Positions 5,014-44,229 of a stretch of DNA of 64,000 nt are shown here, one piece after another. The position numbers and the translations under genes were made by a program. The DNA comes from Patescibacteria group bacterium (GTDB lineage: Bacteria; Patescibacteriota; WWE3; 2-01-FULL-39-13), in assembly GCA_048499955.1 (NCBI GenBank), contig JASNYX010000001.1, positions 2,452 to 66,451 on the forward strand, read 5' to 3'. The notes beneath the pieces are model-generated. The model searched no databases. It was not told where the DNA came from and worked only from the letters and a program-made list of their open reading frames with translations. Position 1 is the first letter of the stretch. Every line of letters begins with the position of its first letter.

Positions 5014-5019
5014 AATTAG

Positions 5020-5715: not shown

Positions 5716-5724
5716 TAGCTTAAT

Positions 5725-7956
5725 ATGAATTTGCCTTTCCTAAAAAAGAAAACTCCAGAAACAACACCCAACACAAACCAACAAAACAATATTGGGGTTT
5801 CAGTGCCGGGTATGGCTACTTCTACTGCCTCATTAGCAAAACAAACTTCGTCGGCGAAACTTCCTGAAACAGCGGAAAAAGCTCTGGCAAAAGGCATACC
5901 AAGCGTTCAGGATATCATTGCTCCGAGTGCAATAGAGGTGGATTATAACTATGTCAAAATCGGTGATAAATACTTTAGAACTTTATTTGTGTCTGCGTAT
6001 CCACGTTTTGTAGGGGCAAACTGGTTAGAGCCTATTATTAACTTTGATCATGCTTGTACGGTTACGATGTTTTACTACCCGATGAATGCCAGGAATGTTT
6101 TAGATGATTTAAGAAGAAAAATCGCTGAAATGGAGGCGACACTGAGCATGGCGAAAGAGCGGGGGAGAGTCGTTGACCCGGCAGTCCAAGCAGCCTTGGG
6201 GGATGCAAAATCTTTACAGGAACAGCTGGTTAAAGGTATCGAAAGGTTTTTCCACTTTTCATTCTATATTACATTGTCAGCACCAACATTAGAGGAACTA
6301 AACAACGTAAGTTATCAAATGGAATCCACACTGGGCTCTCTTTCTTTAATTTCGAAGAAAGCTACTCTGGACATGGAAAACGCTTTTAAATCGACCCTAC
6401 CATTATGTTTGGATAGGCTGAAAGTCATCAGAAATATGGATACTACTTCGGTAGCAACAACATTTCCTTTTACCTCAAGTGAACTTACCGCCAACGAAGG
6501 TATTTTATATGGAATCAACAAACACAATGGATCACTTATTATCTTCGATAGATTTTCACTTGAAAACGCCAACGCTGTAATTTTTGCTAAATCAGGTTCA
6601 GGTAAATCCTACTTCGTTAAACTGGAAGCCCTAAGATCGTTATTATTCGGAACCGGTGTTATCGTACTTGATCCTGAAACAGAATATAAGAAATTGTGCG
6701 AAGCAGTAGGAGGAGATTACATTGATTTCAGTATTAACACAAAAGCAAAAATAAACCCGTTCGAGCTCTCCGTGACGGAAGACAATGAAGATAATTTAAG
6801 TATGAAAATTCTGAGTCTTCATGCTCTTTTGAAAATCATGTTAGGAGACATGTCCAGTGCGGAAGCTGCCGTGCTTGACCGAGCCTTAATTGATACTTAT
6901 CGACTAAAAGGAATTACACAAGATCCGGCCTCACAACAACATAATGAACCACCTCTGATGGAAGACCTTTATAAAACCCTTCAAGTCATGGAAGAACCTG
7001 AATCAAAGGCATTAGCTGCCAGGCTTGAACGATTCGTAAAAGGTTCTCTTGCCGGTATTTTTGACCAAAGATCTAACCTTGATTTAAGTAATGACTTTAC
7101 TGTTTTTTCTATCCGAAACCTACAAGATGTGCTAAGGCCAATTGCAATGTTTATGATACTTGATTTTATTTGGACTAAAGTCAAATACAATCTTAAACGT
7201 CGAATGCTGATTCTCGACGAAGCATGGACTTTAATGCAATATCCTGACTCGGCCGCTTTCGTATATTCATTAGCGAAAAGAGCTAGAAAATACTATCTTG
7301 GGTTAACAACTATCACTCAAGACGTAAATGACTTTTTAAATTCAGACTATGGAAAAGCAGTAGTAACAAACTCTTCTATTCAAGTTCTCTTAAAGCAGCA
7401 TCCTGCTTCGATGGAGGCGCTTACTGAAATTTTCTACCTCTCAGGTGGGGAAAGGAACTTTTTGCTCTCAGCGGGCATTGGAGAGGGCTTATTCTTTGCA
7501 GGAACCAATCACGTTGCTATGTCAGTTAAGGCTTCGAAACAGGAACACGCACTGATAACTACAAATCCTGCAGAAGTTATGAAGATGCAAAAAGATCAGG
7601 ATATTGAAAAGCTAATTCAGCAAAATATAAACAGCAACAATTTGGCAAACATGCAATCGCAAGCTATGAATAATAATTCCCTAAAGATCAACACAGTTCC
7701 CAACGTACAACCCGGAGTACCACCTGTCACAAACAACAATCCTGGCAGCACTGTAATACCGGTAGTAACACCCATTAACCAGGCACCTATAAATACGCCA
7801 ACCAATGTTGGTCAGGTTAATCCTTATGAAAGTAAATCGGTACCACCGAATAATTCTTCGGTACAAATGCCAAACCCGATGGTAGGCGAAGATCAGGAAA
7901 ACAACTACACAAGTGGCACAATAATGCTGAATCCGAATAGAAATAATCAGGAATAA
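5725..7956 (+). CDS. virB4: VirB4/TrbE/CagE-family type IV secretion ATPase with Q/N/P-rich C-terminal tail
   Basis: Walker A AKSGSGKSY, Walker B LILDEAWTL, overall VirB4 (DUF87) layout; last ~130 aa low-complexity (NNNSLKINTVPNVQPGVPPVTNNNPGS...). Confidence 0.85.
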   Translation: MNLPFLKKKTPETTPNTNQQNNIGVSVPGMATSTASLAKQTSSAKLPETAEKALAKGIPSVQDIIAPSAIEVDYNYVKIGDKYFRTLFVSAYPRFVGANWLEPIINFDHACTVTMFYYPMNARNVLDDLRRKIAEMEATLSMAKERGRVVDPAVQAALGDAKSLQEQLVKGIERFFHFSFYITLSAPTLEELNNVSYQMESTLGSLSLISKKATLDMENAFKSTLPLCLDRLKVIRNMDTTSVATTFPFTSSELTANEGILYGINKHNGSLIIFDRFSLENANAVIFAKSGSGKSYFVKLEALRSLLFGTGVIVLDPETEYKKLCEAVGGDYIDFSINTKAKINPFELSVTEDNEDNLSMKILSLHALLKIMLGDMSSAEAAVLDRALIDTYRLKGITQDPASQQHNEPPLMEDLYKTLQVMEEPESKALAARLERFVKGSLAGIFDQRSNLDLSNDFTVFSIRNLQDVLRPIAMFMILDFIWTKVKYNLKRRMLILDEAWTLMQYPDSAAFVYSLAKRARKYYLGLTTITQDVNDFLNSDYGKAVVTNSSIQVLLKQHPASMEALTEIFYLSGGERNFLLSAGIGEGLFFAGTNHVAMSVKASKQEHALITTNPAEVMKMQKDQDIEKLIQQNINSNNLANMQSQAMNNNSLKINTVPNVQPGVPPVTNNNPGSTVIPVVTPINQAPINTPTNVGQVNPYESKSVPPNNSSVQMPNPMVGEDQENNYTSGTIMLNPNRNNQE

Positions 7957-28581: not shown

Positions 28582-31500
28582 TTAAAGTTTCATTGTGAGA
28601 AGCTTCTGTTCGTATTTCACTCTAATTCTTTTTAGCTCGTCCTGTACTTTTCGAGGAACTTCTTTGCTGTTTCTCAGTAAATGAGCGTTCTTTTTTGCAA
28701 GTATTTCCAATTCTGATTGTATTTGTGATTTTAATGTTGCTTTTTCTTGTGGCGTTAGGGCGTGGAGAAGAACTTCCCATTTTACTTCTTCATATTCAGG
28801 ATCATTCACAATTCTGCTATTAAATTCGTTTTCGTTATCGAATTCTATATTTTGTTTGAGGAGATTTCTTAGTTGTGAAGCATCTGATTGTAAGGTTAGC
28901 TTTTGAGGGGTCTCATTTTTTGCAGTTTGAGATGAGGTAAAGGATGTCCCGCTTCCAGTGTAACCAGGCATAAAGTCCATTGTGTCGCATAGTCCACTTT
29001 CGCCGACAGTCGCAGGAATTCTCTTTTCTTCTGACAGTGGAGGAGTAAGCATCCTTTGGTGGAGGCAGTAACCGCTCACTTGTGGCTGTTCGAATAGGTA
29101 GTACTCAACATACATAGTTCTTACGTCATCATTCGGGTTACTGAAACCTACATATTGTACTCGGTCTTCATCAAGTGCCTGTGCAGCACTTGATGCACCG
29201 GGTAAAGCCTTGTCAGTTTCAACTTTGTTAATTCCCAATGTTAGTGAGACCGCTTGTTTTGCACTCTGAGGAGTGAAATATCTATCAGTGAAATTCGGAA
29301 GGCTGAACATTGCATCATTTGCATCCATGTGTTTTAGTCCTCTGCCGACCATATCTCCTGTTAATGGATCCGGATAAGTATAGATGAGGTAATGCCTCGA
29401 ATTGAATTTACATATAACTTGGTCAGGGTCAGTTCCGATCACTGCACCTGTTGCATCATAAATAGTTCGTCCATCTTCAACATCACAATTAAGGATTGTG
29501 GATCCAACGAGGGAAGTTACTAGTCCTCCAAGCCAGCTACTTAGGTTCGGGATACTGAAATTCCAATCGGCATCATCGGAAAACGGCAATCTTTCTTCAA
29601 TTCTCGTATTTGCTCGACATTCACCATCAACACATTCTCGTGCTTCTACTAACTCGTTAGCCATAATTTTCTGACAAAGTGCAGGAGGTGCCCATGATTC
29701 ACATACCCTACAATCGATTGGAGGCAATGGTCTATCATCAACAAATTGGCAATGCTCGCCTTCGCATCTGCATGATGCGGTTTGGCTACATCCCGGAACC
29801 CAAGGGGCGTTACTATGATCAATAACAAAGTTGACTTCAAATTTTCCTTCCTGCCTTGGTGTTACAGGTACGGGGCACATATCGCTGATAGATAAGCCGT
29901 ACTGTTCCTTTTCAGTTCCGTCTGGTACATATTTAGGCATCGCACCGGATTGAATAGGACTGCTACAACTTCCGATTTTTATCCCATCAAGGAAGTATTC
30001 AACAGTCCACGAGTAATCAAATAGGTACGGACAGCTCCACGGTTGGGTATCCCAAGCTTTCACTCCATAAGAGTCACCTTTATTTTCTATAAGCAAGCTC
30101 ATATTCTGACAGCCCGGGGATGTTACGGATTGGTATGATCCGTTATTCAATTGTTCTTCATCAACCGCATTTGCGGATGATGGGTACATCAAGCTTTGAA
30201 AGTTATTTGTAGTGTTTGTAGTGTTTACTTTTGGAGGCTCGTATTGAGGCCGTTTGTTCACATTCGACAATACTTCTTCCCTACTAACGTTGGAAAATTG
30301 CACGTCACCACTATCCGCAAGTTGGTTCCCGGGAAGATAAGTTTCGTGGCGAGTGTAGTAACCCTTTCTTGTTCCACCCAACCCAAAATTTGCGAGTCTC
30401 TCTGTTACATATTCATAAAGATTTCCTGTATCTTGAAGTTCCGGAGGTTCCTCATAGAGCATTTGTCCTGTAAATGAAAACAACCTTCCAAAAGACACGC
30501 ATTCAGATTCATCTGCACCTGAATGGCAGTAAAAAGATTCACTATCTCTATCTGCGGGGTTGTACACAACATCTTTTTTCAGACATCTAAATGCAGTTGC
30601 TACATCATCTCCCGGATCAGGTTCTAGATCCGGATCGCATCCAATTCTTTGAATACAAGCGTTAAATCTTAGTACCGGCATGTCAGCCATAAGCCCATAA
30701 GTAGTTTCTCCACTCTCGGTTTTAGTACTAATTCTTCTCCATCTTTCGCTCAAACTTTCATATGTTTCCCCTGATTCCCATTCGATATCAGGTTGTTCTC
30801 CTACTCCATATGGGGGGCTATACGGCTTATAATTAGGGATATTCATAGAAAGGTAAGGGATATTTGCATGTTCCATTTTTGTTCTTTTTTGTATCGAATG
30901 AACCCCGTCGCCCATTGATCCGAACATTGATTTTGCCATTTGTGAAAAATTAGTATGATCATAAGAAGCGGTTAAACTCATTTCAGCAGAAAGCCATCTT
31001 GCTAAATCTCCAATACTATCTCCATCTTCTTTGTCGTTAACTACTGATTCAAGGCTAAAAGGCGGAAAGCCATTATGTCCAACGACTTCTCCTCTGTATC
31101 CAACCCAATCCATATCGATAGGACCTCCACAGAATTTACGATAGTCGTTCTGCATACGACACATTTCAATATTTGTAGCGTATCCTATTACGTTGCCAAA
31201 ACTATCTACGCAAGGTTGATACATCGCACATTGTATTTCGCTCACTGCATATCCCATAAAATTCCCATCTGGTGTCATGCATCTTACAAAAGAGTTTGCT
31301 AACAAAAGTGCTATTTGCTCCGGAGTTAATGGGTGACCGGCTAAATATTCAAGAAGTGCTAACCATGCCAACTTAGGTTGTAAATTAGCATCCAATAAAC
31401 CAAAACCAGGGTTTTGGGCGTCAGAAAACCCATACCACATGACAGAATTAAGTTGGCTACCGCTTAGTAATTGTTGCAAACTGAATACTTGGGCTAGCCA

Positions 31501-32220
31501 GGCCGCTTGTGCAGCTTGATCCGAGGTTGGCCATCCGAACTCTGTTATCCATACGGGAGCTCCTGAGATGCTATTGAGGGCATTTATTTGATCTATGATT
31601 TGTTGAAGTGATCCCGGCTGGCTAGGGTCAGGTATATATGGGTGAATTGCAAATCCGTCTGCTGTTCCTCCTGCTGCGATCACTTGCATAATAAATTGAA
31701 GATCTCCGGAAACAAAACCCGCTGAGATCGTGGCTTGCCCATGAGCTTGCAAAGTTGCGTGTGCTAAACCTAATAGCATTCCGTATGACGCCGCATCCAT
31801 GTATTTTACTGAGTTACTCATGGCATGATCATCAGGTTCGTTCCAAATTTGATACGCGTATAAGCTACCAAAAGTTTGGTATGCGTGTTCTACAACGTTG
31901 GTTGAAAAATGATGTATATAATTAGGGTTGCTTGAACTCCCTTGTGGAAATGCCCCCTGATCTCCGTACTCCCAGTTTATTATTCCGACAACCCTTATTC
32001 CTGCATTTTGTATGCTTTGCACATAGTTCCTTGTGACTTCATCATTTCTAAGCACGATTCGAACCTGTGTAATTCCAGCTTCTACTAGCATTTCCGGGTT
32101 AGGTGAAGCTCCGGGGTTATGGGGATCTAAAGAAATAGCATAAACATTTCCTGCACAAAAAAATAGGAGAGATAAAGATATTAATATTAATGCTGATAAT
32201 CTTTTCAAGCTTAAATACAT
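28582..32220 (-). CDS. Giant secreted protein (~1210 aa): signal peptide, N-terminal GH5-like TIM-barrel glycoside hydrolase domain, long Cys-rich region, C-terminal coiled coil
   Basis: Signal MYLSLKRLSALILISLSLLFFCAGNVYA (start moved to 32220 from the track's 32265); GH5-type motifs IWNEPD (acid/base) and WITEFGW (nucleophile); many CxxC/Cys clusters downstream; KE-rich heptads at the end. Confidence 0.7.
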   Translation of the reverse strand: MYLSLKRLSALILISLSLLFFCAGNVYAISLDPHNPGASPNPEMLVEAGITQVRIVLRNDEVTRNYVQSIQNAGIRVVGIINWEYGDQGAFPQGSSSNPNYIHHFSTNVVEHAYQTFGSLYAYQIWNEPDDHAMSNSVKYMDAASYGMLLGLAHATLQAHGQATISAGFVSGDLQFIMQVIAAGGTADGFAIHPYIPDPSQPGSLQQIIDQINALNSISGAPVWITEFGWPTSDQAAQAAWLAQVFSLQQLLSGSQLNSVMWYGFSDAQNPGFGLLDANLQPKLAWLALLEYLAGHPLTPEQIALLLANSFVRCMTPDGNFMGYAVSEIQCAMYQPCVDSFGNVIGYATNIEMCRMQNDYRKFCGGPIDMDWVGYRGEVVGHNGFPPFSLESVVNDKEDGDSIGDLARWLSAEMSLTASYDHTNFSQMAKSMFGSMGDGVHSIQKRTKMEHANIPYLSMNIPNYKPYSPPYGVGEQPDIEWESGETYESLSERWRRISTKTESGETTYGLMADMPVLRFNACIQRIGCDPDLEPDPGDDVATAFRCLKKDVVYNPADRDSESFYCHSGADESECVSFGRLFSFTGQMLYEEPPELQDTGNLYEYVTERLANFGLGGTRKGYYTRHETYLPGNQLADSGDVQFSNVSREEVLSNVNKRPQYEPPKVNTTNTTNNFQSLMYPSSANAVDEEQLNNGSYQSVTSPGCQNMSLLIENKGDSYGVKAWDTQPWSCPYLFDYSWTVEYFLDGIKIGSCSSPIQSGAMPKYVPDGTEKEQYGLSISDMCPVPVTPRQEGKFEVNFVIDHSNAPWVPGCSQTASCRCEGEHCQFVDDRPLPPIDCRVCESWAPPALCQKIMANELVEARECVDGECRANTRIEERLPFSDDADWNFSIPNLSSWLGGLVTSLVGSTILNCDVEDGRTIYDATGAVIGTDPDQVICKFNSRHYLIYTYPDPLTGDMVGRGLKHMDANDAMFSLPNFTDRYFTPQSAKQAVSLTLGINKVETDKALPGASSAAQALDEDRVQYVGFSNPNDDVRTMYVEYYLFEQPQVSGYCLHQRMLTPPLSEEKRIPATVGESGLCDTMDFMPGYTGSGTSFTSSQTAKNETPQKLTLQSDASQLRNLLKQNIEFDNENEFNSRIVNDPEYEEVKWEVLLHALTPQEKATLKSQIQSELEILAKKNAHLLRNSKEVPRKVQDELKRIRVKYEQKLLTMKL

Positions 32221-32274
32221 AAATGAATTTTTAACATCACATAGTATCACGAATAAACTTCGCACTCTACCATT

Positions 32275-33303
32275 CTATCTCGGCACAGCTTCCATAAGTA
32301 GTGTCACTCTACCGCCGACTGCCGGTCCTGAACTTGCATTTCCTGTAATTATAAAAACAGGAACTAATCTATTATCAAAGGCAAAGTAACCTAGTTCAAC
32401 CTGATCTACCGCTAATGTAGTTATTGGTGCATTCGACATAAATTCCGCTTGAATTATCTGAAACTTTTTTTCACGCAACTCTTTTAGTAGTGTTTCACGA
32501 TTTTTTAATGGAGTGTCGGTTATTTCCGATCCGACAGAACCGATAGTTTCCACATATAAAGTGTTTATAGAAAAATCTGCTGAGTAATTGATAGAAATAT
32601 GATTTGGGGAAGTGCTTCTATCTTTGTCGATTATAGCGAGGTCATTTAGTCTTGCTTCATAAATAATTTCGATTCCGTTTGCTGCTCCGGGCACATTAAC
32701 ATTGTATTGGCGTATTGCCTCCATTCTTTTAAAACCATATCTTGTGGAGGTATAACGTGCCGGATCGAGTCCGAGTGATCTTATTGAGTCGTAACCTCTA
32801 TTTACATAATCCTTCGGATTTTTATTTTCGAAGGATTCGGTGTTAGGCTCAAATTGGTTTTTTCCGTAAGTAAAGATTCCGCGGTCTTTTTCTATTGATA
32901 GAGAATACCCGTTTCCTGATGCATAAATTAGGTCGCCTTGCACAGGGCTATTAACTCTATTGGTAATATTCAAATTCAAAGTTTTGACTAACTTATCTAT
33001 ATTTTCGTCAGTAAAAAAATTTTTCGGAGTGTATTCGTAAACAGGTAAATCGGTTCTATTGGGAAGGGTTTTTTCCAACTCGGGATTCAGCAGTACAGAC
33101 ATTTGGTTAGTCAACCCCTGAAGGGCTTCGGATCCTTTGAATTCATCAGCGAGGTTAACCTGTGCGATATCCGGCAGGTCGGTAGTCGGCGTAGATAATG
33201 AATTAATCATTATCCAGACAACTAGGCCTATGATTAATATCACTAACCCTATACTAAGTGCTTTCGAATTTTTTAACTTATATAAAATATCTGTTAAGTT
33301 CAT
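32275..33303 (-). CDS. Membrane-anchored hypothetical extracellular protein (342 aa)
   Basis: N-terminal TM LSIGLVILIIGLVVWIMI; 9-nt gap to the downstream giant gene (operon). Confidence 0.65.
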   Translation of the reverse strand: MNLTDILYKLKNSKALSIGLVILIIGLVVWIMINSLSTPTTDLPDIAQVNLADEFKGSEALQGLTNQMSVLLNPELEKTLPNRTDLPVYEYTPKNFFTDENIDKLVKTLNLNITNRVNSPVQGDLIYASGNGYSLSIEKDRGIFTYGKNQFEPNTESFENKNPKDYVNRGYDSIRSLGLDPARYTSTRYGFKRMEAIRQYNVNVPGAANGIEIIYEARLNDLAIIDKDRSTSPNHISINYSADFSINTLYVETIGSVGSEITDTPLKNRETLLKELREKKFQIIQAEFMSNAPITTLAVDQVELGYFAFDNRLVPVFIITGNASSGPAVGGRVTLLMEAVPR

Positions 33304-33329
33304 ATTTCTCTATAAATAATCTATCACTA

Positions 33330-36300
33330 TTATGGTGCCGGTCTGTACGGAACATATGGTGGGTTCATCGTTACCGGTTGCCCTGGGTGGCATTCAGGAT
33401 ATCTACCTCCGGATTTTCTGAATTCATAGTGTAAGTGTGGTCCTGTAGAGTTCCCGGTACTTCCGGAAATTCCAATTTCTTGACCTTTTATAATTGGGTC
33501 GCCTGCGTTGACTAGTATTCCTGATAAGTGAGCGTACATTGACCTGAATCCCAACTCAGATATGACTTCAACAAAATTACCATAGCCGCCGTTGCAGGTA
33601 GAATACGCATCGCCTTCTCCGCAACCAGTTCCAATTCTTGCTGTGCCATCGTGTGTAGCATAAATAGTTGAATCTCTGCCAACATTACCAAAATCTATAG
33701 CTTCAACTCCGGAGTGTGAGTATGATCCGTTCGGTCCCTGTGTAACAGTGACAGGGCAAGTTCCCGCACCTGCACATACCGGCCAACCACTCGGGCATCT
33801 TGCACATCCACCGTTTCCAACAGGTATGTTTTCTGAAGCGATAGCGGTTCGGCCTGATTCTTCAACCGTGCCCACCTCAACACTATTGTAGTATGTGTGA
33901 TGTAGTGTTCCTGCATTTAGCTCGTTAAAGTAATCTACCAAGTCAACATATATGACTAACTCTATAGATTCTCCTGCAGGTATGGTTTGCCCAACGAATT
34001 GAGTGGAGATCCATTGAGGGGTAATACTGTCATTTTCTGTATTGACTAGCTTTCCTATGAATCCGGACGAGCCATATGATATTACCTGACCACCTGAGTC
34101 ACATGAAGTTACCATGCTTAAGTTGTCGTCGAATCTGCCGATTGTTACGGTTTGCGTTGATATATTTTGGACTACAATTTTGAAGGCTTTCAGTCGGATT
34201 CCTGCAAAACCTGTAGATTCCTCAGTTTTAGTAACTCTTATGAGTTCGGAGTCTACTCTACCGGAAAGACCTGCCGAAAGTGGCTCATAAGGAGCTATCA
34301 TTCCTCCGATTAAAGCAATTATCAGAGCTACGATAATTCCACAACACCCACAAGGTATGGATATAACAACGAAAAAAGGATAAATAACTATTTTTTTAAC
34401 GAGGTTAATTAGCGAAACTACATCATCTTTAATAGCATTACCTGCACCTCTTAAATCGAATCTCATTAATGATTTCGTAACTTTCCAGATAGTTCCGCCT
34501 GCAAATGTAATTACGTATGAGATTCCTCCTGTGAATATACCTGCAGCTGCCCCAAGGATTTTCGCAATCGTAAGAGCTAAAGCTTTGTTAGACAATAGCT
34601 TGGCCATTACAGGGATTTTAGAAAGCACGGGGAGTGCCAGATTGTCACCAAGTGCTGCCCTTTGTATCATTTTCCCCCACATCCTCATTTTTCTGATGGG
34701 TTTCCAGGTTCTTATTACTTGAGATAGTCCTCTTTCATCTGAAAATCCTAACCTTTTGATGAATTTCTGAACCGGCGCGTACATACTGCCGATAACAGGC
34801 ATACTCGTTAGGGTTTCGCCAAAGATCAAATTCTTATATATATAGTTTCTGATTGCATTAGCACCGCGGTTCCAGCTATCGAGCAATCCGGTATATTGTG
34901 TTTTAAATTGTGCGGCTCTTCCGCTTGCACCAAATTGTTCAAGCCATGCCCAACGATCTTTCGGGTGCATAATGTTTGCACCAAATTTGGAAGCATCGCT
35001 GAGTTCTTCAAGCATTTTCCGACCATTGGCATCAAATATGCTTTTGCCTTGAAAAACCTTATCCAGACTCGCAAAGTCTCCGAGTGAAATTAGTCCTGTA
35101 TTTGGATCTCGAGTGAATAGTCCCGCTTCAGCCATGAAGTCGATAAACTCTTGTTGAGCTGCAGGAAATGGTCCGACTCCACCGGAAGAAAGTAACAATT
35201 GTTTTGTATCATCAAGTCTCTGATAGAAATCATCCAGTTTGGTGAAATCTTCAAACATTTCTTGTGCGTTAAAGCCATAATGAGATAGCTTGTCTGCAAA
35301 ACCTTCGGACTCAATCTTTTGTATAAGAGTGAATGCACCAAAGTCGTCAAGACCTTTTCCTGCATCGTATATCCCGAATCCTTGCCCGCCTTTAACTGTG
35401 TGAAAGTTAAATTTGTTTGCCGGGTTTCCGACTGCATCTTTCACTTCCCATTCAATCGAAACCCTTGAATCAAATAGGCCTGTTTTTTCTAGTAGCTTTG
35501 GGATTCCTTTTAAATCAGATGAGTCCCTAACTTCAAATCTTATGCCTAAGTTCTCGGCGATTTTTTCACCCATAACCGATATCGATGCGTACGTTTTGGC
35601 AATAGGTCTCAAGGCGGGTGGCAGTGTGTCGACTAAGCCTCCCGGAGTGAACGCAGCGCCCCAGTTTTGTATTGATCGAAGTCTTTTATCTATGAAAGGT
35701 AAGGTTGAAATTGCACGAGAAGTACCGAATACTGCTGTAAAATATTTCCCGGCTTGTATGTTTTCGAGTATTTCTTTTGTTGTGGCAGCAGCAAACAGAT
35801 CGTTTCCCATGTCGGCGGTAAGCTTTGCAGCCTTTAGTCTTTTTTTTGCTTTGTTTGTTTCATCTGCGATATATTGATCTTTTGCATAATCTGCAAGCAT
35901 CGAGGCGTCTGCAGGTGAGTGTGTTGCCAAAAGTGTGTTATAGGTTTCGTCCCTAATTTGTACGGATTTTTTTTCTATTGCATCTCGAACGAGTTTGTTT
36001 GCTTTTGCTTCAAAGGTAGTAGAAATTACATATCCGGCAGATAACTCCTGATTAGCCATGTGACGTAAATCTCCATCAACATAGCTTAGTCTTGAATTCC
36101 CTTTATGTTCAAAGTTTGCATAATCCGGAGATCCGGCAGGTAGACGGAATGCTTTATTTTTTGCGGCAACTTTGGCAAGTTCCAGTTCGTCAACATATCG
36201 GGTTGTACCGAGAGTAGGTGATAGCCCTGCCTTATACCATTCTGTAAGTGATACCATCCCGCTTCCTTTTGCGAGTCCCATTTTCAAGTCGATTTCTTCG

Positions 36301-37367
36301 GCTCTCAGAAACTGAGTTACGATGAGTTTTTGTTGGTCATCGAGGGCATTAAAAGTTCCGGGGGCAAAACTCATAGCCCTGTCGATCCTAGAAGGATCTG
36401 ACAACAGACTATCAATGGAATTTCTTTTATCCATTGAGGCATATTGTTCTAATGTAATACGCCCGGATTCGAGCTCGTTCTTTGCTGCAACGGCATACGT
36501 TGTAAGTTCTTTTCTGAAACTGGAGTCAATAACCCGACTTCCGGTTCCGATTTTTGACACAGACTTGCCCAAAACTTTTTCAAGATCCACATCAGCTTCA
36601 CGCATTACGGTTCGCATATAGTCTCTATAAATTTTATTTCTATTGGTGATTCGTGCTCCGGGACTTTCAAGATTGCTGCCCAAGGTCGCGAGACCGGCGG
36701 CTAGCGAAGCATATGTTTTGTATTGATATCGATCGGATTCACTCTGTTCGACGGTTCTTCGGTCTTCCCATACACCCCGATTGTTAGGATCTGCTCCGTT
36801 GGTTTTGTCTATCAATAGTTGGGCTTCAGATTCTTTTCTGCCGGTAACAGGGTTTAGCACTAGGGGAGAGGCTTTTTCAATTGCAGCTCTAAAGGGTTTA
36901 AGAAAAAGACTGTCAGGGTCATCAAGACTTTGTCCTACATCAGTGTATTTTGAATTGGGTACGGCAATATCATCACCGTCTGTTGTTTGACCTCTAACTA
37001 AACGTCCGAGTAGCTCGGCTCGTCGATCTTGAGAAATTTCATCTAGTGAAAGAATGTCGTTCTTTGTTTTTTGAACAAGCTTTTCGATTGTTCTTATCGG
37101 ATCAGAACCTAAATCTTTTAAAGTGAACGCATTGTTAACATATTTTAAATCGCTGAAGGCTTCAGGACCTTCAATTAAAGCTCGGACAATTTCTCTATCT
37201 CCTACTTGAGGGCTAGGGCCTCTCTTGCTCACTAACATGTATATGTTATTTTCGTGCTCTTGTTTTATGATGGCGAGAACTTCTCTTGGGATCGTTGTTG
37301 GCGATCCGAAAACTTCTCTTACCCATTGTTCAAAAGAAATAGGTTCGGGTCTTCTTGGTGGAGGCAT
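33330..37367 (-). CDS. Giant (1345 aa) membrane protein: about 900-aa cytoplasmic N-terminal region, Cys-containing TM segments, extracellular C-terminal M23/LytM metallopeptidase domain
   Basis: No signal peptide; TM segments (ILGAAAGIFTGGISYVITFAGG; FFVVISIPCGCCGIIVALIIALIGGMI); M23 motifs YGNFVEVISELGFRSMYAHLS and GSTGNSTGPHLHYEF. Confidence 0.8.
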   Translation of the reverse strand: MPPPRRPEPISFEQWVREVFGSPTTIPREVLAIIKQEHENNIYMLVSKRGPSPQVGDREIVRALIEGPEAFSDLKYVNNAFTLKDLGSDPIRTIEKLVQKTKNDILSLDEISQDRRAELLGRLVRGQTTDGDDIAVPNSKYTDVGQSLDDPDSLFLKPFRAAIEKASPLVLNPVTGRKESEAQLLIDKTNGADPNNRGVWEDRRTVEQSESDRYQYKTYASLAAGLATLGSNLESPGARITNRNKIYRDYMRTVMREADVDLEKVLGKSVSKIGTGSRVIDSSFRKELTTYAVAAKNELESGRITLEQYASMDKRNSIDSLLSDPSRIDRAMSFAPGTFNALDDQQKLIVTQFLRAEEIDLKMGLAKGSGMVSLTEWYKAGLSPTLGTTRYVDELELAKVAAKNKAFRLPAGSPDYANFEHKGNSRLSYVDGDLRHMANQELSAGYVISTTFEAKANKLVRDAIEKKSVQIRDETYNTLLATHSPADASMLADYAKDQYIADETNKAKKRLKAAKLTADMGNDLFAAATTKEILENIQAGKYFTAVFGTSRAISTLPFIDKRLRSIQNWGAAFTPGGLVDTLPPALRPIAKTYASISVMGEKIAENLGIRFEVRDSSDLKGIPKLLEKTGLFDSRVSIEWEVKDAVGNPANKFNFHTVKGGQGFGIYDAGKGLDDFGAFTLIQKIESEGFADKLSHYGFNAQEMFEDFTKLDDFYQRLDDTKQLLLSSGGVGPFPAAQQEFIDFMAEAGLFTRDPNTGLISLGDFASLDKVFQGKSIFDANGRKMLEELSDASKFGANIMHPKDRWAWLEQFGASGRAAQFKTQYTGLLDSWNRGANAIRNYIYKNLIFGETLTSMPVIGSMYAPVQKFIKRLGFSDERGLSQVIRTWKPIRKMRMWGKMIQRAALGDNLALPVLSKIPVMAKLLSNKALALTIAKILGAAAGIFTGGISYVITFAGGTIWKVTKSLMRFDLRGAGNAIKDDVVSLINLVKKIVIYPFFVVISIPCGCCGIIVALIIALIGGMIAPYEPLSAGLSGRVDSELIRVTKTEESTGFAGIRLKAFKIVVQNISTQTVTIGRFDDNLSMVTSCDSGGQVISYGSSGFIGKLVNTENDSITPQWISTQFVGQTIPAGESIELVIYVDLVDYFNELNAGTLHHTYYNSVEVGTVEESGRTAIASENIPVGNGGCARCPSGWPVCAGAGTCPVTVTQGPNGSYSHSGVEAIDFGNVGRDSTIYATHDGTARIGTGCGEGDAYSTCNGGYGNFVEVISELGFRSMYAHLSGILVNAGDPIIKGQEIGISGSTGNSTGPHLHYEFRKSGGRYPECHPGQPVTMNPPYVPYRPAP

Positions 37368-37567
37368 ACTTATAAATGATTTTATCAGATTCTGTTGAGA
37401 TCCTGCTTAAGCAACATTTTGAATTTTCAAAATTTATGTTATGAGTTTGTAATTGAATTTATTTGAATATTAAATATTGTTAAGGTATCATACTCTGTTC
37501 GGTGTAGTATTTAATAAGTGATGATTGTCAATCAACTCATCTTCGATTATCATTTTTTTAAACGACA

Positions 37568-39094
37568 ATGCAAATAATAAAAACCTTAACCACTACAATT
37601 AATATCGTGCAAAGCAAGTTGCAAAGACATCGAATGATTTTATATGTAGTGTTTGTTGCTTTCCTTGCCTTTACACAAACTGCTATCTTTGCCCAAAATA
37701 ACGCTAATCAGCAAGCTCCATCAATGGAAGAAAGTACGCAAATACCCGTGTATGCACCATCCGGAACTTCAGGTGTGAACAGCCCGGCTACCGGCGAGAA
37801 GTCAAACTTGCAGAACCTGACTTCTCCTGATCAGGCAGATGCTCAAATATTCCAAACATTAACGAGAACCGTTAGTAGCATGTATAGCTTTTTTTGCTCA
37901 GTTGGATCTCTAAACGGTGCAGGTGAATGTGAAATAACTCGTCCGATGTGGGCGGCAAGTCTTTTAGTAAAGGATTTGCTAATTGATATGGCGTTCGTGT
38001 CTATTTGTTCTAAGACAGGTGAAGAGGTGGTTTCAGATCGTGCTTGCGGTAATGCGGCTTTAACTGCTCAATTATTAGAAAATCCTCAGGCTCTACGCGG
38101 AACTCCGGAGAATCCCTATGTGAGATTTGAGGGAGATGGAGCATTTTTTATAGCTTCTAACTTCCATTCGGTTGCAAACGAACCTCCTATCCCCACTGAT
38201 TTAGCACTTTTTATTGATGATACTTTCCAAGATACTATAATGCCGGGTTCATCAGCGTATGCACAAGGAATTTTCGTGGAACCATATAGAGCTTTTGTAA
38301 TTCGAGGTTGGAGATTGTCTAGAAATATTGCACTTTCACTGTTAGGTGCCTTCGTTGGTATAGCCGCGTTAATGGTGATGTTCAGAACTCAGATTGCACC
38401 AAAGGTCGCGGTTTCCGTTTATAGCGTTTTGCCTATGATACCTATCTCGTTAGGACTAATATTACTTTCGTATCCGATATTATCTTTGATATACGGATTT
38501 ATTCCCCCGTTCGTTGGGTTCGTAATGGCTTTTAGCAGTACGATTATTGTTGAGGTGTTTAGCATTTCCGGAGGAGTTGCAAATTTGGCATCCCTTGCAT
38601 TTACCGGGTTGATTCTTAGTGCGGCATCAGGCGGAACTTTCACTTTAATTATCGCTATTTTAGCGGCACTTGGAGTTGGAATTCTATTTATATTGGGATT
38701 AACAATCTTGTGGCAGCTATGTAAGATTTTTGCATCTTTGATATTTTATACTTTTGCTGCGCCTTTCGTTTTCCTTATGGCTGTTATTCCCGGTAAGAGT
38801 GGGCTCATCATGAATTTTTTCAAAAAAATTGCAGTTGATGTTTTTACAGTTCCGGCAATCATACTTATGGCAACCTTAGGTTTTGCGATAATTGCTTACG
38901 GTCCGGACTCTGCTGATATTTTCAGTTGGAATATCGGAGCCAGTTTTGCCGCGGTTGGTTTTACCTTCTTCGCATCATTTATTAAGCTTTTCATTGGTAT
39001 GGGTATTTTGTGGAATGCGAAAAATGCTCGAGGTAGCATTGAACGGTTGATGGGAGCCGGTAACCTTTGGGGAATGGATCCACCCAAGAGATAA
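37568..39094 (+). CDS. Polytopic membrane protein, VirB6/TrbL-like (signal peptide, ~250-aa periplasmic domain, 6-7 TM helices)
   Basis: Architecture only (no motif): cleavable-looking leader MILYVVFVAFLAFTQTAIFAQ, then a dense TM bundle from aa ~255 to 480; divergent from the M23 giant operon. Confidence 0.45.
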   Translation: MQIIKTLTTTINIVQSKLQRHRMILYVVFVAFLAFTQTAIFAQNNANQQAPSMEESTQIPVYAPSGTSGVNSPATGEKSNLQNLTSPDQADAQIFQTLTRTVSSMYSFFCSVGSLNGAGECEITRPMWAASLLVKDLLIDMAFVSICSKTGEEVVSDRACGNAALTAQLLENPQALRGTPENPYVRFEGDGAFFIASNFHSVANEPPIPTDLALFIDDTFQDTIMPGSSAYAQGIFVEPYRAFVIRGWRLSRNIALSLLGAFVGIAALMVMFRTQIAPKVAVSVYSVLPMIPISLGLILLSYPILSLIYGFIPPFVGFVMAFSSTIIVEVFSISGGVANLASLAFTGLILSAASGGTFTLIIAILAALGVGILFILGLTILWQLCKIFASLIFYTFAAPFVFLMAVIPGKSGLIMNFFKKIAVDVFTVPAIILMATLGFAIIAYGPDSADIFSWNIGASFAAVGFTFFASFIKLFIGMGILWNAKNARGSIERLMGAGNLWGMDPPKR

Positions 39095-39189: not shown

Positions 39190-39630
39190 TTATGGAGTGG
39201 TAAAGCTATCTAACCAGTCGAGAACTGAGTTAAGCGGATTGATCCAGAGAGATAAATCTCCAAGGCCAAGAAGTTTAAATACCAAGTTTAATACGGTTCC
39301 GCCTGCTCCTACTGCAAGTAGCAAAAATATAATTGTATAGAACCATTGAGTCGGCATCTGTTCCAGTTCTTTTGAATTTTCTCTATTTATAACTGTGTGG
39401 AATATCCTCCACATCAGAACCACTATTGCGATCCCTATCATCAAATATTGAACAATCTGCCAGGCCCTGGGGATCATGCACTTTAAAAAAGCTCCCAACA
39501 TAGGGGGAGTTCCGGCATTGATGCTGCCATAACAGTTTGTCTGAGCGTATGAAGCTTCAGGCAAAACAGTCGAAAGTACTGCAGCAAATAAAATAATGAG
39601 TGTTATAAAATATCCGTCTTTTGTGTGCAT
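39190..39630 (-). CDS. Small secreted two-helix membrane protein, VirB2/TrbC-pilin-like
   Basis: Signal peptide (ITLIILFAAVLSTVLPEASYAQ) plus two hydrophobic helices separated by a short polar loop; 146 aa. Confidence 0.5.
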   Translation of the reverse strand: MHTKDGYFITLIILFAAVLSTVLPEASYAQTNCYGSINAGTPPMLGAFLKCMIPRAWQIVQYLMIGIAIVVLMWRIFHTVINRENSKELEQMPTQWFYTIIFLLLAVGAGGTVLNLVFKLLGLGDLSLWINPLNSVLDWLDSFTTP

Positions 39631-40104: not shown

Positions 40105-40728
40105 ATGAGGTCTGAGGATGGTGTTTACCATGGCTTATACATCGATATGACCCTTACTCTTGATTTTGTTCATCCTGCTAAGGTTGAGCTTTGGGAAGAA
40201 GATTTCCTCGGATTTGATGATCATTATTTCACAGTTTCAGACAGTTATAGCTTTCCTGATCAAAGAGCGTGTTTAGCTGCCCGGCTTTGCGGAACAGATG
40301 CTTGGATGGCCGGGGCTGACATTGAAGGTCCTGGTGGTCCGGGGGGGCCCGGAGGTCCGGGTGGTCCTCCGCCAGGAGATGGTGGTGATCCAAGCCCACC
40401 TGGGGGCGGTGGAGGAAATACTGGAGGTGCTCCGGAACTGAGTCTTATAGGTGGTTGTGGCCAAGGAGTGACAGTGACAGATGGAGAAGGCATTGTAGCT
40501 TGTGTAAAGGGTTGGAGTAAAAATCTGACGATTATACTCGTCGGACTTGGAATCGTAAGTGCGATCTTTATACTTCCTTGGATCGGGCTTCTTTATGCGA
40601 GCGGTAATCCCGGTAACTTCCAGAAGGCGAACGATATCCTTTTCTCGTGGATCTCGGGATTATTGTTGTTGGTATTGTCCGGTGCGATTATCACGATCGT
40701 AGGGAGAGATATTTTCGGTGCAACCTAA
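40105..40728 (+). CDS. Gly/Pro-rich linker protein with C-terminal VirB2-like two-helix pilin domain (no signal peptide of its own)
   Basis: GPGGPGGPGGPGGPPPGDGGDPSPPGGGGG linker, then LTIILVGLGIVSAIFILPWIGLLYASGNP...ILFSWISGLLLLVLSGAIITIV; the WIG motif is shared with the 43381 and 43843 paralogs. Confidence 0.55.
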   Translation: MRSEDGVYHGLYIDMTLTLDFVHPAKVELWEEDFLGFDDHYFTVSDSYSFPDQRACLAARLCGTDAWMAGADIEGPGGPGGPGGPGGPPPGDGGDPSPPGGGGGNTGGAPELSLIGGCGQGVTVTDGEGIVACVKGWSKNLTIILVGLGIVSAIFILPWIGLLYASGNPGNFQKANDILFSWISGLLLLVLSGAIITIVGRDIFGAT

Positions 40729-40801: not shown

Positions 40802-41344
40802 ATGCCGGGAAAAAACCTTAAACGACAGCTATTACCAAATGGAATTTACCATGCTTATAATCGAGGCTTCGAAAAGCGAGAAGTATTCAAGGATGGTGCG
40901 GATTATTTAAACTATACTGAGCTAGTTAGACAGGAAATCATAAAAAATCCGGGAAAAGTCATCATATACGCATATTGTTTGTTGCCGAATCATTTTCATT
41001 TCTTAATAAAGCAGAGTAGTAAATATGATATGCCAAGGTTTATGCAGGTTGTGACCGCCGAATATACCCGCTATTTCAATCACAGATACAAACGTTATGG
41101 CAGATTATGGGAAAATGCATACCGTGCGGTACTGATTAAAGATCACTATCAATTTGTTACGGTGCAAAACTACATTCATCGAAATCCATCAGATATCACT
41201 GAAAATATAGAAAAATATCCGTATTCAAGTTACGGACACTATAAACATAGATTTAAACTGGATTTCATTAAAAAGGGGAGACCCCTAAGACCTCTATCGC
41301 CATCTACCGAGCCCCTATCATTTCCGAACCTCGATATTGAATAA
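40802..41344 (+). mobile_element. tnpA: IS200/IS605-family HuH (Y1) transposase TnpA, possibly RAYT-like (180 aa)
   Basis: YHAYNRG start, HuH motif LLPNHFHFLI, catalytic Tyr context VQNYIHRNP; 3' end overlaps the convergent SpoIID-like gene by 27 nt. Confidence 0.7.
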
Positions 41345-43153
41345 CGCACTTTTTAGTTGAAGTGCTCCCGGGGCTCGAAGATTAAAGATTGCTCTGAAAT
41401 CTTCTCCTGAAAATTTCAGCTCGCCTTTATTTGTTGTGATTCTAACTTCAGATGTGAATCCGCTGCTGGAGTAGCTGACTTTTACATCGCTGACTTCTTT
41501 GATGCCGCTTTCTTCGCGAACTTTATCCATGCTCCAGGTTCCGTCGATGTTTTTGCCCCAACAGCTCTTGGCGTCTAGTTGTGAAAGATGTGTCTGGTTA
41601 TTACTACTTTCTTTGTAAAGAACTACCGCCCCAACAATATCTGCAAATTCTTTTTCGCTTAACCAAGGATGGCTTCTTGAGCACGATTGGCCGCTTCTGG
41701 TTTTATACCAACCTTTATAGAACCATGGCGAAGAAGCTTTGCTCTCGTATGCTTTGCTTGTCCAGCATTCCCGTGATCCGCATTCTGTATCCCAACCGCC
41801 TCCTGTGTTGTGCCCGTTACTTGAGTATCCATAGTTGTAGCCACCTGAAGTAGCGGCGTAATAAGTCGAAAAGATTTGTCCGGTTTTCTTGCTGACAAGC
41901 ACCTGTTTCTTAGTTTTTGAAACAGCATCGTGCCATCTGGCGGCACTCGAACTTGTGGCTTTACTTTCCGACCATACTTGGCAGTTTTCTGTTGTGCATA
42001 TTGTTCCCGGAATACTTGAGCTACCCATAGCCCATCCTTGTCGTGCCAATGCATAGGTTCGGGCTGCAACTGCTTGTGCTTTTAAGGCTTCAATCGGCCA
42101 ACTTGAGGGCATCTCTGCCATGCCTTTTAGGTATTTGCCTTCAAAACTCATAGTGCCTTTGTCGGTTTTGATATTATCGGGAACTTCAACTTCCTTGATT
42201 TCTACGTCGCCGTAGTATGCTCTGAGTATTTGTTTATAGTCTTGCCCGGCATCGGCTCGGCCCTTGGCTCCATACTGGCTCATACCTTTTCTATGAGGTG
42301 CTCCGAAAGAAAACCCTGCAAAGGCTTTTTTAAAGCCGGGGTTAAATCCGGCACCGGAACTTGCGTCTCCTGTTGAGGGCACATCTCCAACGCTAGTCGA
42401 GAAGGTTTCTGTTTTCTCATCAAGCAGACCTTTTTGTGCTGCAGACAGCTCACTTAATTTTCTTTGAATTTGTTGTTTCTCTTGCTGTAGTGCTAATTGC
42501 TTTTGTGATACCGAAGAAAGGTCATTTTGTGTCGCTGCAACTTGAGCAGCAAGTCTGGCGGAAAGAGCTTGAAGACTTTTTTTCTGTCCTTCTGCCTGAG
42601 TTTTAAGACCTTCTATTTCGGTTTTAGCATCTTCGTACCCTTTAATTTCTTTTCCTACCAGTTCGATTAGGTTATTGGAGGTATCTATAAAAGCAAAATA
42701 ATAGTTTGCGATCTGTGATCCTTCCGATAGACTTCCCCCTGTAAAAAAAAGATCCATAAAGTTTCTTTGAGTTGCAATGTACATGTCTCGAAGGACAATA
42801 TCTTTCACTTTACTTTTCTCATCAAGTTCATCTTTTTTGATCTCAAGCTTTCGGGATAGATTGGAAATATCAGCAGATAGCTCGTTTATTTGAGATTCAA
42901 CGGAGTTTATCTGGGATTGTGTGACAGTAAGGTTCTTTGAAAAGTTGTTCAAATTTGCGGTGATTTCATTCGCTTTTGCTTTTACTTTTTCTAATTCTGT
43001 CTCTTTTGTTACTAATTCTTTTGTCTTTTTTTGAATCTCTTTATCTAGATCATCTTCAGCACGAGAAAGGCCGACGCCCCAGAGCGATAGCAGCAATATT
43101 GAAAGCGTTATATAGAATATAATCCCTAAAGATCCCTTATATTGATATTTCAT
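41318..43153 (-). CDS. Secreted coiled-coil + SpoIID/LytB-domain protein (peptidoglycan remodelling)
   Basis: Signal/TM then ~250 aa of heptad coiled coil (PcsB-like), then the SpoIID/LytB signature WPIEALKAQAVAARTYAL and a Cys/Trp-rich C-terminus. Confidence 0.7.
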   Translation of the reverse strand: MKYQYKGSLGIIFYITLSILLLSLWGVGLSRAEDDLDKEIQKKTKELVTKETELEKVKAKANEITANLNNFSKNLTVTQSQINSVESQINELSADISNLSRKLEIKKDELDEKSKVKDIVLRDMYIATQRNFMDLFFTGGSLSEGSQIANYYFAFIDTSNNLIELVGKEIKGYEDAKTEIEGLKTQAEGQKKSLQALSARLAAQVAATQNDLSSVSQKQLALQQEKQQIQRKLSELSAAQKGLLDEKTETFSTSVGDVPSTGDASSGAGFNPGFKKAFAGFSFGAPHRKGMSQYGAKGRADAGQDYKQILRAYYGDVEIKEVEVPDNIKTDKGTMSFEGKYLKGMAEMPSSWPIEALKAQAVAARTYALARQGWAMGSSSIPGTICTTENCQVWSESKATSSSAARWHDAVSKTKKQVLVSKKTGQIFSTYYAATSGGYNYGYSSNGHNTGGGWDTECGSRECWTSKAYESKASSPWFYKGWYKTRSGQSCSRSHPWLSEKEFADIVGAVVLYKESSNNQTHLSQLDAKSCWGKNIDGTWSMDKVREESGIKEVSDVKVSYSSSGFTSEVRITTNKGELKFSGEDFRAIFNLRAPGALQLKSALFNIEVRK

Positions 43154-43380: not shown

Positions 43381-43815
43381 ATGACAAAATTAACAAGAAT
43401 TAATACTTCTTTATTCACTAAAGCTGGTTATGTTGTGGTAGCGGCTCTGGCCTTTGTGACTAAAGCGTATGCCCAAGCTGTTCCTTCTGGATCAATAGTT
43501 GTTCCATCTAACAGATTTGGAAGCATCACTAATTTGCAGACACTGTTTCAATGGATCTTTAATTTCCTTCGATGGATAGGATGGGTTGGGGTAGTACTCG
43601 GTATTTTATGGATTATCGTTGTTTTGATATACAAGATATTCTTCGCCCCAGATAGCGAAGAAGCCATGAAGAATGTTCAAAGCCAGCTTACAAAAGCTGT
43701 CTTGGTTGTTATCGCCGGACTATTACTAGTGAGTATGGGATATATCGTCACGACAGTGTTCACACTGTTTGGTGCTGGAACCGTGCCTCCGTTAAATTTA
43801 GATCCGACTATTTAA
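43381..43815 (+). CDS. VirB2/TrbC-like T4SS pilin candidate (signal peptide + two TM helices)
   Basis: Leader ...AALAFVTKAYAQA; FNFLRWIGWVGVVLGILWIIVVLIY - loop - AVLVVIAGLLLVSMGYIVTTVF; SD-like aaggagg 6 nt upstream of the ATG. Confidence 0.6.
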   Translation: MTKLTRINTSLFTKAGYVVVAALAFVTKAYAQAVPSGSIVVPSNRFGSITNLQTLFQWIFNFLRWIGWVGVVLGILWIIVVLIYKIFFAPDSEEAMKNVQSQLTKAVLVVIAGLLLVSMGYIVTTVFTLFGAGTVPPLNLDPTI

Positions 43816-43842
43816 GGTTTTGTAACCGAATTTCAAGAGGGG

Positions 43843-44229
43843 GTGATTATTTACCCCCTCTTGACTCAATGTATGTTCATAACAAAGGCACTTGCGCAAA
43901 TAACTGTAGAAAGCGTGGGAGTTGATCCAACAGGATTAGGCAATATTAGTAGTATTGCCGGGTTTTTTTTCTGGGGGTTAAATTTCCTTAGGTGGATAGG
44001 ATGGGCGGGTGTCGTCTTGGGCACTTTATACACGATTGTCACGATAATATATAATCTTTGGACCGCAGAAGATGCGAGTTCCTCATATGAAATTGTAGTC
44101 AAAAGCATTAGGAAGACAATTGTTATCTCAGTTCTCGGTTTAGTTTTGGTCTCTATCGCTGGAGTGATTTCGATTATTGCAGGTCTATTCGGTGCGAGCG
44201 TGCCATTCAAACTCCCTTTTACTCCTTGA
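43843..44229 (+). CDS. VirB2/TrbC-like pilin paralog
   Basis: LNFLRWIGWAGVVLGTLYTIVTIIY - loop - TIVISVLGLVLVSIAGVISIIAGLF; tandem with the 43381 paralog (shared FLRWIGW.GVVLG motif). Confidence 0.6.
   Translation: MIIYPLLTQCMFITKALAQITVESVGVDPTGLGNISSIAGFFFWGLNFLRWIGWAGVVLGTLYTIVTIIYNLWTAEDASSSYEIVVKSIRKTIVISVLGLVLVSIAGVISIIAGLFGASVPFKLPFTP

Follow-up and report, generated by a model that had tools for sequence, protein, structure and literature searches.

A conserved three-gene unit encoding a giant, predicted membrane-tethered M23 endopeptidase in a WWE3 (Patescibacteria) genome, and its possible link to a type IV secretion system

The 64,000-nt window analysed here (contig JASNYX010000001.1 of a Patescibacteria group bacterium, WWE3 lineage) carries three co-directional open reading frames (ORFs) on its minus strand, separated by gaps of 9 and 26 nt. 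In the order of transcription they encode a 1345-aa protein with a C-terminal M23 peptidase domain (33330..37367; hereafter the giant), a 342-aa bitopic protein (32275..33303; the mid protein) and a secreted protein with a glycoside hydrolase (GH) domain (28582..32265; the GH giant), whose longest reading, from a GTG start, comprises 1227 aa. A 508-aa polytopic protein is encoded divergently on the plus strand (37568..39094), with a 200-nt intergenic region (37368..37567) between its gene and that of the giant. ORFs and gaps exist as an earlier interpretation made from the letters alone (the sequence-only reading) had described them, apart from the start of the GH gene: its signal peptide begins at Met16 (ATG at 32220), which is probably the start in place of the GTG, so that the gap to the upstream mid gene is probably about 54 nt. 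Either strand of the divergent intergenic region contains promoter-like hexamers, at a frequency not above that of shuffled sequence, and terminator-like matches across the region were likewise no commoner than in shuffled sequence; one good terminator-like hairpin lies 3’ of the polytopic gene (39112-39137).

Related loci, which are metagenomic contigs with giant-family members, most of them short, were linked to the window proteins by BLAST. The order of a divergent polytopic gene, the giant gene, a gene for a 300-370-aa protein and a third gene was found in L001, L002, L003/L004, L085, L086, L087, L090 and L091, although the proteins share only 20-36% identity. The three genes are a real, conserved unit and are co-transcribed.

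Peptidase_M23 (PF01551) is the sole Pfam match of the giant (residues 1229-1320, E=1.8e-18, 67 bits against a cut-off of 28.7) and is matched by 22 of the 24 giant-family members that make up our alignment A1. Together with a Cys-containing linker (GGCxxCPxGWP), the domain occupies 33333..33809 on the minus strand. Its closest solved relatives among PDB sequences are TagE (1.2e-17) and ShyA (1.5e-12), and phi29 gp13 (3csq) is also among the matches. The first zinc motif had been given as HxxxD; the actual spacing is H-x6-D (S-H1218-SGVEAI-D1225), with the His kept in 21/24 and the Asp in 22/24 members, a spacing shared by phi29 gp13. The predicted HLH motif was found as PHLHYEF at residue 1310. 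H1218, D1225, H1280, H1311 and H1313 are each conserved in 21 to 23 of the 24 sequences, and none of these positions is substituted in the window protein. The M23 endopeptidase at the C-terminus of the giant is thus, as judged from its sequence, intact, with all catalytic residues conserved. C1188, C1191 and C1326 are conserved in the family as well.

Three further regions precede this domain. The N-terminal region (34593..37367, minus strand; residues 1-925) is predicted to be cytoplasmic and helical with a few beta elements. A hydropathy scan placed the membrane region at residues 929-1027 (34287..34583, minus strand), with hydrophobic segments at 929-955 and 992-1027 and a 36-aa basic loop between them. 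It is followed by a beta-sandwich, predicted to be extracellular and Ig/ApaG/DUF11-like, at residues ~1036-1186 (33810..34262, minus strand). The giant has no N-terminal signal peptide, in agreement with the sequence-only reading, which had also noticed the Cys-containing membrane segment IPCGCCG; this motif (residues 1004-1010; window 34338-34358) lies within the second hydrophobic segment. Of its CxC pair, C1008 is conserved in 21/24 and C1006 in 14/24 members, and inter-subunit disulfides, metal binding and lipid attachment are candidate roles.

The distribution of cysteines and charges bears on the orientation of the protein in the membrane. Throughout the 24 aligned members the N-terminal region is Cys-poor (0-2 Cys in 830-1070 aa), being Cys-free in the window giant, and the conserved Cys of the family all lie after the membrane segments. 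In the 24 residues that lead up to the first hydrophobic segment, the family total is 94 K/R against 19 D/E; behind the second segment the charges are near balance (62 K/R, 69 D/E). From the Cys-free N-terminus, the K/R-rich segment before the first hydrophobic stretch and the restriction of Cys to the part behind the membrane we infer an N-in/C-out topology, which would place the ~925-aa N-terminus in the cytoplasm and the M23 domain outside. This fits the huge cytoplasmic N-terminus proposed earlier. With such a topology the chain must cross the membrane an odd number of times, as it would if one segment folded back around the conserved TGGIS turn to form a re-entrant hairpin.

Exhaustive phmmer searches with residues 1-1190 among 1.84 billion proteins delimited a giant family of 32 representatives at 50% clustering, nearly all of 1160-1475 aa, fragments aside. 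A word-index search with the whole giant returned generic M23 matches only, and a single-protein scan of GTDB genomes found nothing; the multiple sequence alignments of the families are shallow. The extreme N-terminus (MPxP..TFxGWxED) is conserved in alignment A1. For the N-terminal region no Pfam family was detected in any giant-family member and its profile matched no PDB sequence. Moreover, tblastn with residues 1-1190 found no counterpart in 50,697 phage genomes, and no IMG/VR contig matched these 1190 aa. We predict that the ~925-aa region, which is joined to M23 and has no detectable relatives, is a large cytoplasmic domain constituting a new family.

The mid protein (minus strand, 32275..33303) was modelled with AlphaFold2 from eight sequences. 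The model is confident (mean predicted local distance difference test score (pLDDT) 78.7, predicted template modelling score 0.69) and consists of an N-terminal transmembrane (TM) helix at residues 14-35 and three modules that each comprise a helix packed on a 4-stranded sheet. The structural matches of this model, given with score and, where available, extent, were 5coz, an uncharacterised Eubacterium protein (15.2; 228), YycI (11.1; 187), the C-terminal PepSY domains of YpeB (10.2; 146), YycH (9.9; 187), the propeptides of M36/M4 proteases (7.8 and 6.5) and VirB8-type proteins (4.9-6.7; about 65). Pfam models of PepSY, YycH and YycI did not match the protein at E<=0.01, its profile found none among PDB sequences, and homologue searches with the mid and polytopic proteins yielded almost nothing beyond the window and the counterparts in L001, L002 and L085. 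The structural matches to YycI, YycH and YpeB, taken with null hhalign comparisons to VirB8-type proteins, led us to read it as a membrane-anchored tandem PepSY-like protein. As far as the model goes, it qualifies as a YycI/YycH/YpeB-type protein with an N-terminal TM helix and tandem helix/antiparallel-sheet modules.

In Bacillus (WalRK), the cell-wall regulon of WalK is regulated by YycH and YycI. The PepSY domains of YpeB have been proposed to embrace the lytic enzyme SleB as a chaperone-inhibitor (bioRxiv 10.64898/2026.06.01.729290). By analogy, the mid protein is probably a chaperone-inhibitor, or keeper, of a hydrolase. The pairs nevertheless differ: SleB is a soluble lytic transglycosylase, whereas here an M23 endopeptidase forms part of a giant membrane protein, and, in contrast to both SleB-YpeB and YycH/YycI, the island around the operon is without sporulation or WalK context and the mid protein without a Pfam PepSY or YycH/YycI sequence match.

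The polytopic protein has a signal peptide, a ~200-aa ectodomain and at least 6 TM segments in the hydropathy scan, and P399, P408 and P429 are invariant in its family (alignment A4). Neither the protein nor any of the homologues scanned matched Pfam or NCBIfam; its family profile had no match among PDB sequences, and tblastn against plasmids gave none. The family profile was compared by hhalign with Gram-positive VirB6-like proteins from pCF10/Tn916 and pCW3. It scored 32.3 against Tn916 Orf15 (P=0.0037), 32.1 against TcpH of pCW3 (P=0.0044) and 39.2 against a joint Orf15+TcpH profile (P=6.5e-4, probability 27.5%); the hhalign probabilities amount to only 8-27%. All three alignments centre on one helix motif, APFVxLMAILPGKQG, which corresponds to LPVSFILSMIPSFDG in Orf15 and LPFIMLIAIVPFFGG in TcpH. 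PrgH, which the protein does not match by hhalign, and ten other polytopic ORFs scored at most 18.5 as controls, and window-shuffled decoys reached the real scores in 0/120 and 2/120 cases. The protein resembles Orf15 and TcpH in being polytopic and in the shared TM-helix motif, but differs from them in lacking a C-terminal cytoplasmic domain and in having a cleavable signal peptide and the ectodomain. A divergent, polytopic neighbour is therefore present as the sequence-only reading had it; its VirB6-like nature is the weaker part of that claim, with no library match and hhalign P values of about 0.004 each. We consider the protein a weakly supported candidate for a highly diverged VirB6-like channel subunit. 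In L087, a distant locus, two paralogous polytopic genes, 125-1672(-) and 8409-9986(-), flank the unit of giant, mid and third gene.

The third gene product begins, from Met16, with a signal-peptide-like segment (MYLSLKRLSALILISLSLLFFCAGNVYA followed by IS), as the sequence-only reading had noted. Its catalytic domain lies at about 31306-32136 on the minus strand. The motifs NEP (142-144) and TEFG (241-244) are present and provide the catalytic Glu residues E143 and E242, 99 residues apart. Pfam PF11790 is only just matched (22.3 bits, cut-off 21), and the solved but uncharacterised protein 5JVK_A at E=5.7e-7, with WNEP, IHPY and WxTExGW aligned; WNEP corresponds to the acid/base and WxTExGW to the nucleophile. 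PF00150 (Cellulase, GH5) has no match in the window protein and a sub-threshold one (18.9 bits) in the L003 homologue. The alignment to 5JVK and the marginal PF11790 match indicate a clan GH-A enzyme nearer to GH39/PF11790 types than to Pfam GH5. The motifs described earlier thus stand and their Glu residues are not substituted, while the assignment to GH5 holds at the level of the clan only. On its sequence, the GH giant is classed as a secreted glycosidase of clan GH-A that retains the two catalytic Glu.

Unlike 5JVK_A-type enzymes, the protein continues after the GH domain for ~900 aa, a Cys-rich extension that ends in a charged helical tail and in which scans of Pfam, PHROG and NCBIfam, among others, found no anchor and no family match. 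The mature protein has 27 Cys, of which 25 fall within residues 329-1093, in line with the ~800-aa Cys-rich stretch noted before. A further difference from 5JVK_A-type enzymes is the high variability of the gene between loci: it is the least conserved position of the module, too variable for its products to be aligned reliably across loci. Over residues 42-282, the GH domain, the L086 orthologue shares 55% identity, with both Glu conserved; the L003 product shows LANEP and IGEASWG motifs and the L085 product a weak PF11790 match, and for the L087 product neither a Pfam match at E<=0.05 nor a BLAST match to the window GH protein was obtained. In L001:1-1605(-) and L090:11355-14369(+) an ITETG motif is followed ~170 aa on by GPNEPDLE, the inverse of the NEP-then-TEFG order in the window; these products may contain two GH-A-like domains or a rearranged one.

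Beyond the polytopic gene lies an array of small genes. A 146-aa protein with a signal peptide and a 2-TM hairpin is encoded directly next to the polytopic gene (39190..39630, minus strand) and has homologues in L001, L002, L003 and L090. It is followed by a 207-aa protein (40105..40728, plus strand) that is rich in Gly and Pro in its middle and has a pilin-like 2-TM hairpin at its C-terminus; for this protein Pfam T4SS_pilin gave E=0.09, below threshold (E=0.0011 in the L003 homologue), and the NCBIfam model of the Mbov_0395 pilin-like conjugal transfer protein E=0.024. Two tandem proteins of 144 and 128 aa (43381..44229, plus strand) show weak TrbC and T4SS_pilin matches and have paralogues or orthologues in L002 and L090. 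The build of type IV secretion system (T4SS) pilins, a signal peptide and two hydrophobic helices with a short polar loop between them, is seen in the proteins of 146, 144 and 128 aa and in the C-terminal part of the one of 207 aa. The pilin models stayed below their cut-offs, PF18895 and PF04956 at 9.6-19.5 bits against 26.6 and 27.9, and NF045849, a pilin-like protein of a Mycoplasma integrative and conjugative element, at 10-14 bits against 40; such sub-threshold T4SS-pilin matches recur in two independent libraries. The small proteins may be VirB2-like pilins. Within the array, a 611-aa SpoIID-like protein (41318..43153, minus strand) combines a coiled-coil N-terminus with PF08486 (E=3e-19).

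The composition of the array is kept in related loci. Pilin-like small genes were found in all five loci that are long enough (window, L001, L002, L003/L004, L090) and a SpoIID-like gene in four of these five, the 9.4-kb L001 being without it; in L002, L003/L004 and L090 it lies 1-3 genes from the polytopic gene, its position in the array being kept. Between genomes, SpoIID is 59-60% and Hsp20 49% identical, compared with 26-30% for the giant, 20-24% for the mid protein, 31-44% for the polytopic protein and 30-41% for the small proteins. This contrast implies that the module evolves much faster than its neighbours, as would be expected of exposed, interaction-facing proteins.

With groEL, dnaN, yidC, rnpA, dnaA, leuS, L25, smpB and ftsH, the window is part of the chromosome and lies near the origin of replication. 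Among GTDB species genomes the best relative of its GroEL is from a WWE3 metagenome-assembled genome (62% identity), followed by Chloroflexota (57-60%); this match and the gene content point, tentatively, to a bacterium of the CPR/Patescibacteria kind. Directly beside dnaN/dnaA it carries a T4SS core (3328..7956, plus strand) consisting of a PrgI-family (VirB3-like) gene, a TrsD-like ORF (5020-5715, plus strand) and a VirB4 ATPase gene (5725-7956, plus strand), as identified by Pfam PrgI, TraG P-loop and AAA_10 and by NCBIfam TrsD and VirB4-family models. The PrgI-family protein has 561 aa, with a long coiled-coil and CarboxypepD_reg extension, and upstream of the core a 439-aa protein (2007-3326) has a TM segment and a weak Pfam match of the WD40 beta-propeller type. 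No VirB6, VirB8, VirB1 or VirB2 gene is found next to virB4 in the window.

A PrgI-TrsD-VirB4 arrangement near dnaA has been published for Patescibacteria (PMC12102498). According to that paper, some classes have little or no VirB6 and VirB8 can hardly ever be detected; arrays of VirB2-like pilins are frequent, and an M23 domain occurs in some of the VirB1 homologues. In the one Patescibacterial species tested the T4SS is essential for epibiotic growth, and VirB6, VirB8 and VirB1 often escape detection (PMC12102498, PMC10633639). The window resembles these systems in its PrgI-TrsD-VirB4 genes by dnaN/dnaA and in a divergent array of small 2-TM-hairpin proteins. It differs in that the island is a separate locus, and the giant, mid and GH proteins are not among the T4SS components described in these two studies.

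Further likenesses connect the giant with the VirB1-type hydrolases of Gram-positive T4SS (PrgK, TraG of pIP501, CwlT, Tn916 Orf14, TcpG). PrgK of pCF10 is built on the plan predicted for the giant: a cytoplasmic N-terminal part of 244 aa is followed by one TM segment (residues 245-263 of 871 aa) and, outside the cell, by hydrolase domains. As in the giant's operon, the genes of VirB1-type hydrolases lie beside one for a polytopic VirB6-like protein and one for a 200-360-aa bitopic protein; the orf15-orf14-orf13 order of Tn916 mirrors the succession of VirB6-like protein, hydrolase and ~320-aa bitopic protein. The giant departs from these hydrolases in having M23 only, without a lytic transglycosylase, lysozyme or CHAP/NlpC domain, in its ~925-aa cytoplasmic part without relatives and in a gene that does not adjoin virB4. 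Comparison of the giant with PrgK, TcpG and Orf14 by hhalign gave insignificant results.

The reading that we prefer, tentatively and as something short of probable, is that the island supplies wall-spanning accessory functions of a Gram-positive-type T4SS and pilus, being a chromosomal, lineage-specific cell-envelope island with a tethered peptidoglycan-cutting core. The giant would be anchored N-in/C-out and would cut the producer's own peptidoglycan locally, in cis. The mid protein might bind the M23 domain, or the glycosidase, and, like YpeB with SleB, keep its partner inactive or stable up to the time of use. Release or positioning of the hydrolase could be coupled by the large cytoplasmic domain to an intracellular partner, possibly the VirB4 machinery. 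The polytopic protein would be a channel subunit of VirB6 type that has diverged strongly, and the small proteins would serve as VirB2-like pilins. The secreted giant glycosidase may work further out, on capsule or host-surface polysaccharide.

Several observations weigh against this T4SS-accessory reading, which is plausible but unproven. The T4SS link drawn by the sequence-only reading finds its core in the window, but the island does not belong to the T4SS operon, from which it is separated by ~21-30 kb and roughly 18-22 genes, counted from virB4, and virB4 was seen in none of the other loci, most of which are on short contigs. No T4SS family model matched an island protein at its curated threshold. 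A family of only 32 representatives at 50% clustering cannot be a general part of Patescibacterial T4SS. No VirB8 emerged either: hhalign of the mid protein against PrgL, Tn916 Orf13 and TcpC gave no signal, and its reading as VirB8 was rejected as unsupported on this null result, the poor structural matches to VirB8-type proteins and the lack of an NTF2-like ectodomain. What connects the mid protein to an enzyme is the operon adjacency to the M23 gene. The membrane crossings of the giant are ambiguous, as two hydrophobic segments put both of its ends on the same side unless one is re-entrant. Finally, a fold search with the model of the N-terminal region recovered no structural relative, a weak negative given the low confidence of that model (mean pLDDT 58.6).

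The strongest alternative, which appears to us rather unlikely, is a housekeeping complex for wall remodelling or division, composed of the M23 enzyme, the SpoIID-like lytic transglycosylase and a YycI/YycH-like regulator, to which the polytopic and small proteins would be unrelated. The absence of any T4SS match above threshold among the island proteins suits it, as does the SpoIID gene, which is syntenic in four genomes and well conserved. YycH and YycI, as WalK-regulon regulators, are among the top structural matches of the mid protein, and the M23 growth and division enzymes ShyA, MepM and DipM are among the NCBIfam matches. However, housekeeping machines are usually widespread and slow-evolving, whereas the giant family has its few representatives in 1.84 billion proteins and changes at two to three times the rate of the neighbouring SpoIID. 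A complex of this kind would also leave unexplained the pilin-like array with its repeated weak T4SS-pilin matches, the weak VirB6-type signal and the giant secreted glycosidase.

The proteins might instead be weapons of host attack, with the M23 enzyme, released or at the contact site, and the secreted glycosidase degrading the wall and surface polysaccharides of a bacterial host, whose contents would thereby become accessible to the epibiont. Rapid evolution of the module proteins would fit this, and the GH giant is secreted, Cys-rich and anchorless. The Saccharibacterium Southlakia cannot grow epibiotically without envelope proteins that have domains binding or degrading polysaccharides (PMC10633639), and homologues of peptidases and lysozyme encoded beside its virB4 are reported to be essential too (PMC12102498), both of which count in favour of such a role. 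We nonetheless hold it to be quite improbable. Only a ~170-aa spacer separates the M23 domain from the membrane of the producing cell, which implies a short reach, and a PepSY-like keeper fits the control of self-damage equally well as a weapon. Neither an immunity-like gene nor a cleavage site was identified, and the data identify no host. The predatory action of the M23 peptidase on a host wall that the sequence-only reading had considered is thus spoken for by no test, the enzyme being tethered to its own membrane.

The plan of the giant (long helical region, hydrophobic segments, C-terminal M23) also resembles that of tape-measure proteins with M23, PHROG matches of its M23 domain include tape-measure families (phrog_10030, 4e-18) and one weak database match combined PF10145 with M23, yet its origin as a domesticated or remnant phage tape-measure-like protein in a degraded prophage or tailocin is extremely improbable and was rejected, given that the PHROG matches are confined to residues 1115-1336, that is, the M23 domain and at most ~70 aa before it, that the N-terminal 1190 aa found nothing in the phage genomes or IMG/VR, that no capsid, tail, terminase or integrase gene lies near the island, and that the Hsp20 and SpoIID neighbours are the same in distant relatives, a stable housekeeping synteny.

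Returning to the T4SS-accessory reading, a more far-reaching version of it, unlikely as a whole, would be that a WWE3-like branch has rebuilt the wall-spanning half of its T4SS. A ~925-aa domain would be wired to M23, and a PepSY keeper of the YpeB/YycI type would replace VirB8. The other parts of the apparatus would be an extremely diverged VirB6, a glycan cutter of the SpoIID type and a giant glycosidase that varies between loci; it would open the cell's own wall, and perhaps the host surface, for a VirB2-like pilus. Each enzymatic part is of a known kind, and their combination is not described in the literature cited here. New in combination are the N-terminus without relatives joined to M23, a PepSY-type partner at a VirB8-like position, and a pilin-like/SpoIID island apart from virB4. 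The island would offer concrete candidates for the missing envelope-spanning T4SS parts in one lineage, and the pairing of a hydrolase with a PepSY keeper of the SleB-YpeB type would be extended beyond spore formers. If it is unrelated to secretion, it would be a compact example of a minimal bacterium tethering and guarding a dangerous wall enzyme.

Further genes lie in and around the island. An IS200/Y1-type transposase ORF (40802-41344(+), PF01797, E=2e-12) overlaps the 3’ end of the SpoIID-like gene by 27 nt and is missing at the corresponding place in related loci. Just upstream of the operon, 23478-27968(+) encodes a 612-aa CBM4_9 + LamG-like protein and then four ORFs (25443-27968), two of them with a type IV pilin N-methylation motif, which may be a minor-pilin or adhesin cluster of a type IV pilus. 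Between the T4SS core and the island, an 882-aa protein (20285-22933(-)) with a TM segment in mid-sequence and no match in Pfam, PHROG or NCBIfam is another large orphan envelope protein. The G+C content differs mildly along this part of the window, with 0.39-0.43 at 24000-44000 and 0.33-0.38 at 44-62 kb.

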